From Escherichia coli (lineage in GTDB: Bacteria > Pseudomonadota > Gammaproteobacteria > Enterobacterales > Enterobacteriaceae), in assembly GCF_013122565.1 (NCBI RefSeq), contig NZ_CP053258.1: a stretch of DNA of 64,000 nt. One strand, written 5' to 3'. Shown here one piece after another: positions 20,896 through 21,733 of the stretch. The notes beneath the pieces are model-generated. The model was not told where the DNA came from and searched no databases. It saw nothing but the letters and a program-made list of their open reading frames with translations. Both the position numbers and the translations under genes were made by a program. Every line of letters begins with the position of its first letter. Within the stretch, counting starts at the first letter, position 1.

Positions 20896-20978
20896 ACCGG
20901 AGTGTGGTTATGGTTAATCCCTTCATATTTCAAGCCACAGATGCAATGACCCGAATTATTTTGGGGATACATACTTTA

Positions 20979-21221
20979 TTACTGGGTACTGGTGGTCGTG
21001 GTTGTGGTGGTCCCGGTATTAGAACCATCACCGCCACCGGTTGCCGCGAGCGCGACACCCACCGCCGAGCTTACGGTGCTGACGCTGGTCGCGGAGGAAC
21101 TCCCCGCCGAAACCGACGTTGCTGCCGACCCTGCCGCTTCGCCCACCTGTACAGGTGCAGCCCACGCAGAAGTCGCCGCAAGCGCAGATATGGCAAAAAT
21201 GCCATACAGAACTTTTTTCAT
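20979..21221 (-). CDS. yjbE: GfcA-like small secreted Thr/Ser/Ala-rich protein
   Basis: 80-aa ORF with signal peptide [21 protein letters not shown] and C-terminal poly-Thr ([12 protein letters not shown]). Confidence 0.8.
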
Positions 21222-21628
21222 AACAATTTCCCTTCATTGAATGAATGGAGATTTACCCAAAAACATTTCGGGCGGGATCGAGTATACACAACTAAAGCAT
21301 GCGAATTACGGCGCGGGGAATTAGTGATGGAGTTTTAGGATAATTGGAATGAATATCAAATATAAGCTTCAGCTCATATATAAATAACACTAAAAATCAT
21401 AAGCTTAAAATAAAAATAAAAGTAATTAATCTGCGTATTTTCCGAAATCAATCACGCTTAAAAATCTATTTTAGGATTAACCTCACGGTATGATTTTCGT
21501 TAAATAACAGACAAGAGGATTTATCTGATAAAACAATGCCGACTTATAGTCGGCATTGTTATTAAGGTTATTTAATTAACCGTGCTATGCATTAATTGCC
21601 GAATACGATGTACATATCGGCATCGACC

Positions 21629-21712
21629 TGTAGGCCTGATAAGACGCGTAAAGCGTCGCATCAGGCACCAGTTGCCGGATGCGGCGTAAACGCCTTATCC
21701 GGCCTACATAGC
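21629..21712. repeat. REP element pair downstream of pgi
   Basis: taggcctgataagacgcgtaaagcgtcgcatcaggca ... gccggatgcggcgtaaacgccttatccggcctaca. Confidence 0.7.
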
Positions 21713-21733
21713 GGCATCAGGCATGAACGATGA

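Follow-up and report, generated by a model that had tools for sequence, protein, structure and literature searches.

The 64,000-nucleotide (nt) window analysed here, from Escherichia coli contig NZ_CP053258.1, contains at positions 20896–21733 the tail of pgi and the start of the known Rcs-regulated exopolysaccharide operon yjbEFGH. The spacer between pgi and yjbE contains the pgi terminator and an AT-rich tract; the terminator and part of the tract match the Rfam family STnc430, a candidate small RNA (sRNA), over its full length. The match is probably not an RNA gene. Our tentative suggestion, in which we have somewhat less than even confidence, is that it represents the pgi terminator plus a phased array of four RcsB/RcsAB boxes driving yjbE, and that a cUNCGg hairpin downstream of yjbE serves as an attenuator or 3' stabiliser, giving an excess of YjbE over the YjbFGH export machinery. 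The literature or public transcriptome tables already cover the operon itself, its Rcs control, its paralogy to gfc, the short overlaps between genes and the 3' end of pgi.

Identity of the Locus

All coordinates are those of the window, and pgi and yjbEFGH all lie on its minus strand. The genes are as follows:

21734–23383, minus strand: pgi, glucose-6-phosphate isomerase, stop codon at 21734–21736 (from the list of open reading frames (ORFs) and the annotated pgi in matching E. coli records)
20979–21221, minus strand: yjbE, 80-residue precursor (Pfam YjbE PF11106, 113.6 bits)
20227–20865, minus strand: yjbF, lipoprotein, 212 residues (Pfam YjbF PF11102, 215.7 bits; length as in the K-12 annotation, 639 nt)
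19493–20230, minus strand: yjbG, GfcC-family periplasmic protein, 245 residues (Pfam GfcC N- and C-terminal domains PF20616 and PF06251, 169 and 141 bits)
17397–19493, minus strand: yjbH, 698-residue outer-membrane protein, YjbH/GfcD family (Pfam YjbH PF06082, 899 bits)

All Pfam scores for YjbE, YjbF, YjbG and YjbH were far above the cut-offs. The C-terminal 120 residues of Pgi are 100% identical to K-12 Pgi, and the 6-kb block from pgi to yjbH (17397–23389) shares 97.3% nucleotide identity with K-12 and 94.4% with E. whittamii. Synteny with K-12 is kept on both sides, with lysC and pgi upstream and members of the YjbT and PsiE families downstream. The 838-nt interval was matched in 5,425 of 5,426 complete E. 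coli genomes, where it is annotated as ‘yjbE: exopolysaccharide production protein’. The Pfam families, the nucleotide identity and the same annotation in K-12 and thousands of other E. coli genomes bear out the assignment to yjbEFGH that had been made in an earlier reading of the sequence alone (the sequence-only reading).

That reading had also described the genes as tightly packed, with a 4-nt overlap between yjbF and yjbG and a single nucleotide shared by the yjbG stop and the yjbH start. The ORF coordinates and the junction sequences, ACAATGATT and AATAATGAAA, agree on both points: yjbF and yjbG overlap in ATGA, while yjbG and yjbH meet in TAATG at 19493, with one A common to stop and start. 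The genes follow each other as E-F-G-H on a single strand, and yjbF, yjbG and yjbH overlap slightly, as is characteristic of operons of the yjbEFGH/gfcABCD type. The K-12-equivalent start of yjbF is GTG at 20865, with GGAG 7 nt upstream; the left coordinate of the interval, 20896, was chosen because the longest yjbF ORF extends to a GTG at 20895.

In the K-12 and Salmonella literature, which is the basis for the co-transcription, the Rcs dependence and the exopolysaccharide role, yjbEFGH is activated by the RcsA–RcsB heterodimer and tied to an exopolysaccharide other than colanic acid; its induction is reported under envelope and osmotic stress (PMC5461412, PMC5651002, PMC8117528). The operon is a paralogue of gfcABCD (PMC8592465, PMC8346858).

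For the comparative part of this work, the locus was collected from 80 other Enterobacteriaceae species through a YjbF search; pgi–yjbE synteny was kept in nearly all of them. A set of 65 pgi–yjbE spacers was aligned, and a 53-species alignment was used for mapping the Rfam structure and for covariation analysis.

The pgi Terminator

Downstream of the pgi stop codon the spacer contains two palindromic features:

21629–21708, no strand assigned: bacterial interspersed mosaic element (BIME) in the pgi 3' untranslated region (UTR), made of two repetitive extragenic palindromic (REP) elements in inverted orientation (inverted repeats I1 and I6–I8; Rfam naRNA4)
21532–21544/21548–21560, minus strand: pgi intrinsic terminator hairpin, 13-bp perfect arms and 3-nt loop (from the fold, covariation and K-12 3' ends)

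The second of these had been put forward in the sequence-only reading as a palindrome at 21534–21562 that probably terminates pgi. The palindrome is real, although its position was off by 2 nt (it occupies 21532–21560), and the letters quoted for it are a minus-strand reading. It folds with −19.2 kcal/mol (z = −7.1 relative to shuffled sequences), which makes it a stable hairpin. The U-tract that follows, UUGUUUUAU, extends to about 21523, and the pgi 3' end is expected at about 21530–21532.

In the alignment of 65 spacers, nearly all species have a hairpin in the corresponding position. Its 5' arm occurs in 42 different sequences, with pairing kept throughout; examples of stems (5' arm/3' arm) are ATGCCGAC/GTCGGCAT, AAGCCGATA/TATCGGCTT, ATGCCGGC/GCCGGCAT, ATACCGGC/GCCGGTAT and GCGCCAGC/GCTGGCGC. 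TTTTTTTAT follows the hairpin on its pgi side, where most of the 65 species keep a T-run. In the 53-species MAFFT alignment, which is partly out of register, the stem had a covariation of 0.161 compared to 0.092 in shuffles, none of which reached this value in 500 trials. When the hairpin was read in the direction of pgi it contained 23 G·U pairs, versus 8 in the opposite direction.

Published K-12 transcript data place RNA ends at the same site. Term-seq gave a 3' end at 4235595(+), in the U-tract of the orthologous hairpin (flank ...AATGCCGACGTTATGTCGGCATTTTTTTATCAGATA; PMC7815308 supp. 1), which was classed as ‘orphan’ for the sole reason that its distance from the stop codon exceeds 50 nt (PMC7815308). 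SMRT-Cappable-seq yielded full-length molecules running from 4233721, the pgi start site, to 4235597 and covering only b4025, under two conditions (PMC6131387 supp. 3). By gap-free alignment, 4235595 and 4235597 correspond to 21532 and 21530 in the window. Together with the 42 stems and the conserved T-run, these ends support the palindrome as the intrinsic terminator of pgi; the K-12 data settle its function for the orthologue, and the assignment is carried over to the window by sequence. The hairpin may also terminate transcripts of the plus strand.

The same K-12 data set in eLife reports a Rho-dependent termination region at 4235753(+), from DirectRNA-seq with and without bicyclomycin (PMC7815308). 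Its equivalent in the window, at about 21374, falls inside the AT-rich tract, between the yjbE promoter and the intrinsic terminator, about 160 nt past the latter, where it would constitute a second barrier or insulator.

The BIME, which the sequence-only reading had missed, scored 81.3 bits against the REP-derived Rfam family naRNA4 (RF02564; gathering score 59.5), and E. coli genomes had a median of 28 sites each that matched the BIME part of the query, as is characteristic of REP/BIME sequences. Of 30 complete E. coli genomes sampled at even spacing, about 9 lacked the BIME, and in these the pgi 3' UTR is shorter by about 150 nt; in strain FORC_069, for example, the pgi–yjbE spacer is 354 nt long, compared to 512 nt in the window. 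Since so many genomes lack it, the BIME is, judged by its distribution, an optional insertion with a presence/absence polymorphism.

The terminator palindrome adjoins this element and is directly followed by another conserved palindromic sequence, TTATCAGATAA. It could accordingly be viewed as a REP-like or mobile palindromic element itself, or as a protein operator, in either case without terminator function. We consider this very improbable. The palindrome is single-copy and unrelated in sequence to REPs, and it is present where the BIME is missing: in species and strains without REPs, such as Enterobacter and E. coli FORC_069, the hairpin begins about 20 nt past the pgi stop codon. An element of this kind would also leave unexplained the covarying stem, the retained T-run and the K-12 RNA 3' ends.

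Candidate RcsB Boxes in the AT-Rich Tract

The tract at 21340–21560, which had been singled out as strongly AT-rich and typical of silenced, stress-induced promoters, has a GC content of 27.1%, compared to 52.3% for the window. Only 0.3% of 221-nt segments across the 64 kb are as AT-rich, so this description was apt as far as base composition is concerned.

A search of 21300–21560 for an RcsAB box had also been proposed. In place of the strict consensus we used the published degenerate RcsB box, TN(G/A)GAN4TC(T/C)NA, with its variant TN(G/A)GAN4(A/C)CTNA (PMC7913699), combined with a phylogenetic footprint. This search yielded one good candidate, box B, and three weaker relatives:

21515–21528, minus strand: box A, TCAGATAAATCCTC, RcsB-like, one mismatch to TN(G/A)GAN4TC(T/C)NA
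21472–21485, minus strand: box B, TGAGGTTAATCCTA, the best RcsAB/RcsB box candidate, exact match to the six-position core TNAGNNNNNTCNNA
21432–21445, plus strand: box D, TGCGTATTTTCCGA, half-conserved RcsB-like box, inverted relative to box B, with a conserved TCYNA half
21336–21349, minus strand: box C, TTCCAATTATCCTA, promoter-proximal TCYNA half-site, about −62 to −75 from the predicted start site

Box B stands out by its conservation. Positions T1, A3, G4, T10, C11, Y12 and A14 are invariant in all 65 species, while positions 2, 5–9 and 13 vary. On the plus strand it is an exact match to the variant form of the degenerate box. Relative to the textbook RcsAB consensus it has four mismatches, and it matches the core of TaAGaatatTCctA. 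When the core TNAGNNNNNTCNNA was applied to K-12, it singled out TAAGGATTATCCGA in the region preceding rcsA and TAAGAAATATCGCA at 484 nt ahead of wza, reportedly the RcsAB boxes described for these genes by Wehland & Bernhard (2000). The other boxes are conserved at fewer positions or slightly less strictly. Box A has T in 60 of the species, R in 65, G in 62 and A in 60, followed further along by T in 64, C in 59 and Y in 59. In box D the conserved positions are T (64 species), G (57) and then T, C, Y and A (65 each), and in box C they are T, C and Y (64 each) and A (63).

The distances between the boxes are also patterned. Boxes B and D are 51 bp apart in 56 species and 40 bp apart in 8, including the window. 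The D-to-C distances form clusters at 95–97, 82–85 and 73–74 bp, and box C is separated from the −10 element by 63 bp in 52 species and by 51–52 bp in 8. The spacers thus change in steps of about 11 bp, or about one helical turn. Because the lengths shift in this way, the pattern points to phase-dependent protein binding at the level of DNA, and not to an RNA. On this comparative evidence, the AT-rich tract is an old, family-wide region with conservation at the level of motifs, and not anonymous AT-rich DNA.

It is conceivable that the tract acts mainly as a platform for silencing by H-NS and StpA, and that the operon is induced under stress mainly because silencing is lifted and not because of activation at specific sites. 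The base composition is what such a platform would have, the operon is reported to respond to osmotic and envelope stress, and the Rho termination region maps to the K-12 equivalent of the tract; silencing would, moreover, be compatible with Rcs activation if Rcs acted as an anti-silencer. However, the tract is not foreign DNA, as both the pgi–yjbE synteny and the sequence blocks are common across Enterobacteriaceae, and the conservation is focused in discrete, phased 14-bp boxes, which unspecific binding to AT-rich DNA does not predict. The literature search gave no H-NS data specific to the locus, and the idea rests only on AT-richness. H-NS silencing is thus compatible with the observations and not required by them; as the main function of the tract we find it doubtful, and we prefer the phased box array.

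The STnc430 Match

Overlapping the terminator and three of the four boxes is a feature that the sequence-only reading had not recorded:

21418–21567, plus strand (opposite to yjbE): Rfam RF02053 STnc430, candidate sRNA, full-length match with 72.8 bits compared to a gathering score of 47

The match covers the whole model and agrees in location and orientation with the Salmonella candidate, which Sittka et al. list in the pgi/yjbE spacer (PMC2515195 Table S3). Taken at face value, this would make the AT-rich tract an sRNA gene that is read divergently from yjbE, on the plus strand with a start at about 21418, and the palindrome, which coincides with the terminator of the model, would be primarily its Rho-independent terminator. 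A sigma-70-like site is present at 21384–21411 on the plus strand (ATAACA, 16 nt, TAAAAT), in the right place for a start at about 21418, and the same site occurs in K-12. The plus strand folds with z = −3.9. Furthermore, many species have an A-run before the stem, which reads as a U-run on the opposite strand, so that the hairpin could work both ways.

Several observations run counter to an RNA, however. In Salmonella, STnc430 was only a computational candidate defined by an orphan promoter and terminator; neither cDNA library gave any reads for it (0 in both), and no Northern blot result is listed (‘np’; PMC2515195 Table S3). The sigma-70-like site is absent from Salmonella and Enterobacter and never rises above shuffle expectation, and the curated K-12 list of Term-seq 3' ends has no minus-strand entry near 4235560. 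Only the terminator helix of STnc430 covaries, and pgi explains that helix equally well. The 16 Rfam pairs outside the terminator have a covariation of 0.126, a value that 185 of 500 shuffles reach (shuffle score 0.123), and in helix 1 pairing amounts to only 64%. The main helix of the model pairs boxes B and D with each other, and the substitutions there are anti-compensatory: TCCTAAAA on the left occurs with TTTTCAGA on the right, and TCTGAAAA with TTTTAGGA. The internal helices thus lack covariation, while the columns that are conserved fall on positions of the RcsB box; those that do not vary at all are as expected of a box bound by protein, and the spacers between boxes change in the 11-bp steps described above. 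Finally, the bias in G·U pairs favours an RNA in the direction of pgi over STnc430. We therefore consider an sRNA gene quite unlikely. The family is better regarded, from these alignments, as conserved regulatory DNA plus the pgi terminator, a distinction that matters for Rfam-based annotation of sRNAs.

The yjbE Promoter and Leader

Between the AT-rich tract and yjbE lie the promoter and the leader:

21281–21286, minus strand: putative yjbE −10 element, TATACT, with a weak −35 element, GTAATT, at 21304–21309 and a predicted start site at 21273–21278
21222–21278, minus strand: yjbE 5' UTR, nearly invariant across Enterobacteriaceae, with the Shine-Dalgarno sequence GAAGGG at 21230–21235

The block AGTTGTGTATACTCGAT, which holds TATACT, is 90–100% conserved in the 65 species and is the most conserved part of the spacer. 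From this block to the ATG (21222–21300), identity is 80–100%, well above the rest of the spacer. We infer that yjbE transcription starts at about 21273–21278. Because the −35 element is poor, the promoter should need an activator.

One possible feature of the leader was rejected: a hairpin sequestering the Shine-Dalgarno sequence (inverted repeat I3) was no more stable than shuffled sequences (z = −0.3 and +0.1). The leader as a whole, about 55 nt long, likewise had a folding energy no different from that of shuffles (z = −0.3). The leader also contains a 10-codon ORF, from ATG at 21266 to a TGA, which lacks a Shine-Dalgarno sequence and offers no substitutions for a test of coding pattern.

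The YjbE Peptide

From its sequence, YjbE has a predicted signal peptide of 21 residues, which starts with MKK, continues into a hydrophobic core and ends at the motif AWA|AP, and YjbE is accordingly predicted to be secreted. The mature part begins with APVQ and comprises 59 residues, of which 76% are Ser, Thr, Ala or Gly (T13, S12, A11, G9), and ends in a tail of seven threonines (T7). This composition matches the earlier description of YjbE as an 80-residue secreted peptide rich in Thr, Ser and Ala with a poly-Thr tail. The mature peptide is probably disordered.

A comparison of the length of the low-complexity tail across strains had been suggested, but the tail turned out to be nearly constant. 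YjbE is 100% identical to the K-12 protein and exactly 80 residues long in 58 of 77 species, and among the loci fetched from these species 73 of 77 share one T7 C-terminus, ending in (Q/R); only four Kluyvera-like loci differ, with TTTTTSTTTST. Mixed codons encode the run (ACC ACC ACA ACC ACG ACC ACC). The comparison indicates strong purifying selection on a specific length. Variation in tail length is not seen. The Rcs box for which a search had been proposed is borne out by the phylogenetic footprint. The exact YjbE sequence had no match in the protein cluster collection.

The yjbE–yjbF Hairpin

The spacer between yjbE and yjbF contains a further structure:

20895–20918, minus strand: invariant hairpin AUAACCACAC-UCCG-GUGUGGUUAU with a UNCG tetraloop, followed by UUCUG (−18 kcal/mol, z = −3.2)

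It, too, had been missed, and the interval at 20896–21733 in fact starts inside it. The 9-bp stem, TAACCACAC/GTGTGGTTA, is identical to the letter in 81 of 82 Enterobacteriaceae sequences. The loops are only of the UNCG type (UUCG in 72, UCCG in 4, UGCG in 3 and UACG in 2) and are usually followed, past the stem, by UUUUG or UUUCG. We suggest that the hairpin acts as a partial terminator or as a barrier to 3' exonucleases, in which case there would be more message for yjbE than for yjbFGH.

In Escherichia there are about 50 extra nt past the yjbE stop codon (20919–20978), which resemble both ends of an insert of about 125 nt, similar to enterobacterial repetitive intergenic consensus (ERIC) elements, at the corresponding site of a Citrobacter genome. 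The extra segment might be a truncated ERIC element, but by blastn it is single-copy in E. coli genomes. Other species have REP-like inserts on the opposite side of the hairpin.

Other Features of the Window

The best identity over the 6-kb block to any of the 5,426 complete E. coli genomes was only 97.9%. Since none is closer, the host seems to belong to an Escherichia lineage that diverges somewhat from the E. coli strains usually sequenced. This leaves the interpretation of the operon unaffected.

Downstream of yjbH, psiE (16447–16860, minus strand) is followed directly by a gene for a 296-residue ATP-binding cassette (ABC) permease of the size of malG (15463–16353, plus strand). The gene xylE, which lies between psiE and malG in K-12, is absent at this place (16354–16446).

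Only one other region of the window is as AT-rich as the pgi–yjbE tract, with a GC content down to 24%. It is a 526-residue ORF at 6697–8277 (minus strand), whose product has pentapeptide repeats and, in its central part, a SopA-like domain (174 bits to Pfam PF13981). This ORF sits between ubiC-like and malM-like genes, in the place of yjbI in K-12, and looks horizontally acquired.

A Model for the Locus

We propose that these elements work together as follows. The pgi mRNA would run past the stop codon and the strain-variable BIME, and end at the intrinsic terminator at 21532–21560 and its U-tract. This terminator, backed up by Rho at about 21374 if the K-12 data apply, would insulate yjbE from the strongly expressed pgi. 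The AT-rich 200 bp would form the upstream activating region of the yjbEFGH promoter, which has a good −10 and a poor −35 element and would be activator-dependent. Phosphorylated RcsB (RcsB~P) together with RcsA would bind to boxes A, B, D and C, held in helical phase. From yjbE, a small secreted and probably disordered peptide, rich in Ser, Thr, Ala and Gly and with a fixed T7 tail, would be made. The UNCG hairpin after yjbE, as a partial terminator or 3' stabiliser, would keep the yjbE message above that of yjbFGH, and the ATGA and TAATG overlaps would couple the translation of yjbF, yjbG and yjbH, so as to fix the proportion of lipoprotein, periplasmic protein and barrel. We consider this scheme as a whole (pgi 3' end, Rcs box array, secreted YjbE, hairpin and coupled yjbFGH) likely to be right.

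Several observations weigh against it. The strict RcsAB consensus, TAAGAATATTCCTA, had no match in the region with up to three mismatches, and its total in the window was that expected by chance. Matches to the degenerate RcsB box in the window were no more common than in shuffled sequence. Because the occurrence of the motif is not above chance, the case for the boxes rests on their conservation. A literature search found no footprint or ChIP data for RcsB or RcsA on this region, and the Cappable-seq supplements contained no start-site entry in the yjbE promoter region. For the terminator, the RNA 3' ends and the transcript data belong to the K-12 orthologue and not to the window sequence itself, where the U-tract has 7 U out of 9 with one G. 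A simple terminator scan does not flag the window copy, whereas it flags the K-12 and Enterobacter orthologues with the U-tract UUUUUUUAU; it misses the window copy because the G interrupts the U-tract and because the stem is three pairs longer than that of K-12. Lastly, the U-tract after the yjbE–yjbF hairpin is poor in the window (UUCUG), and the K-12 Term-seq list has no 3' end at this hairpin, as would be expected if, as is presumed, the operon is not expressed in the media used.

An excess of YjbE, if true, would fit a role for this peptide as an exported, perhaps glycosylated, substrate rather than as a helper. The fixed length of YjbE, its T7 tail and the invariant UNCG hairpin argue for a precisely constrained and highly expressed component, and these constraints provide a handle on the function of the YjbE/GfcA proteins. 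The yjbE control region, with its candidate boxes, offers a compact and phylogenetically well-defined multi-box RcsAB architecture. As by-products of the analysis of a known operon, the reassessment of STnc430, the phased boxes, the UNCG hairpin and the T7 tail are of modest, specialist interest.

Comparison with Known Systems

The closest system is the K-12 locus itself, in which yjbEFGH (b4026–b4029) and the upstream pgi (b4025) are the same genes in the same order, on the same strands and with the same overlaps, and YjbE is identical. The position of the terminator, the boxes, the −10 element and the yjbE–yjbF hairpin are also the same as in the window. The pgi–yjbE intergenic region is 512 nt long in the window and 498 nt in K-12, with 13 extra nt in the REP region of the window. 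The terminators differ in the loop and U-tract, which read ACUAUAAGU...UUGUUUU in the window and ACGUUAUGU...UUUUUUU in K-12. The BIME resembles the naRNA4-type BIMEs of other 3' UTRs in having two inverted REPs directly after a stop codon and in being multi-copy in every E. coli genome; it differs in being placed between the stop codon and the true terminator.

Compared to the RcsAB boxes of wza (cps) and rcsA, box B has the same core, T-AG-----TC--A, and is identical to the rcsA box at 10 of 14 positions. Whereas wza and rcsA have one box each, the yjbE region has a phased series of related boxes, up to four in number and all of them candidates by sequence.

The paralogous gfcABCD (ymcDCBA), the front half of the group 4 capsule operon, has the same four-gene layout with common Pfam families: a small Thr-rich secreted or membrane peptide, a spacer of about 100 nt with a hairpin, and then genes for a lipoprotein, a GfcC-type protein and a YjbH/GfcD barrel. 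In K-12, the gfc operon has exactly the same 4-nt and 1-nt overlaps as yjbF, yjbG and yjbH in the window. Overlaps of 1–4 nt at gfcB–C and gfcC–D ‘and homologous operons’ were noted previously and read as translational coupling (PMC8592465). There are also clear differences. The gfc operon runs on into gfcE-etp-etk, GfcA has 101 residues and another Thr-rich pattern than YjbE, the hairpin in the gfcA–gfcB spacer differs in sequence from the yjbE–yjbF hairpin, and the region upstream of gfc differs from that of yjbE and is interrupted by IS1 in K-12. GfcA is a Ser/Thr-rich peptide for which glycosylation and export through GfcD have been suggested as possibilities (PMC8592465); by analogy, a glycosylated and exported peptide of the GfcA type would be a reasonable model for YjbE.

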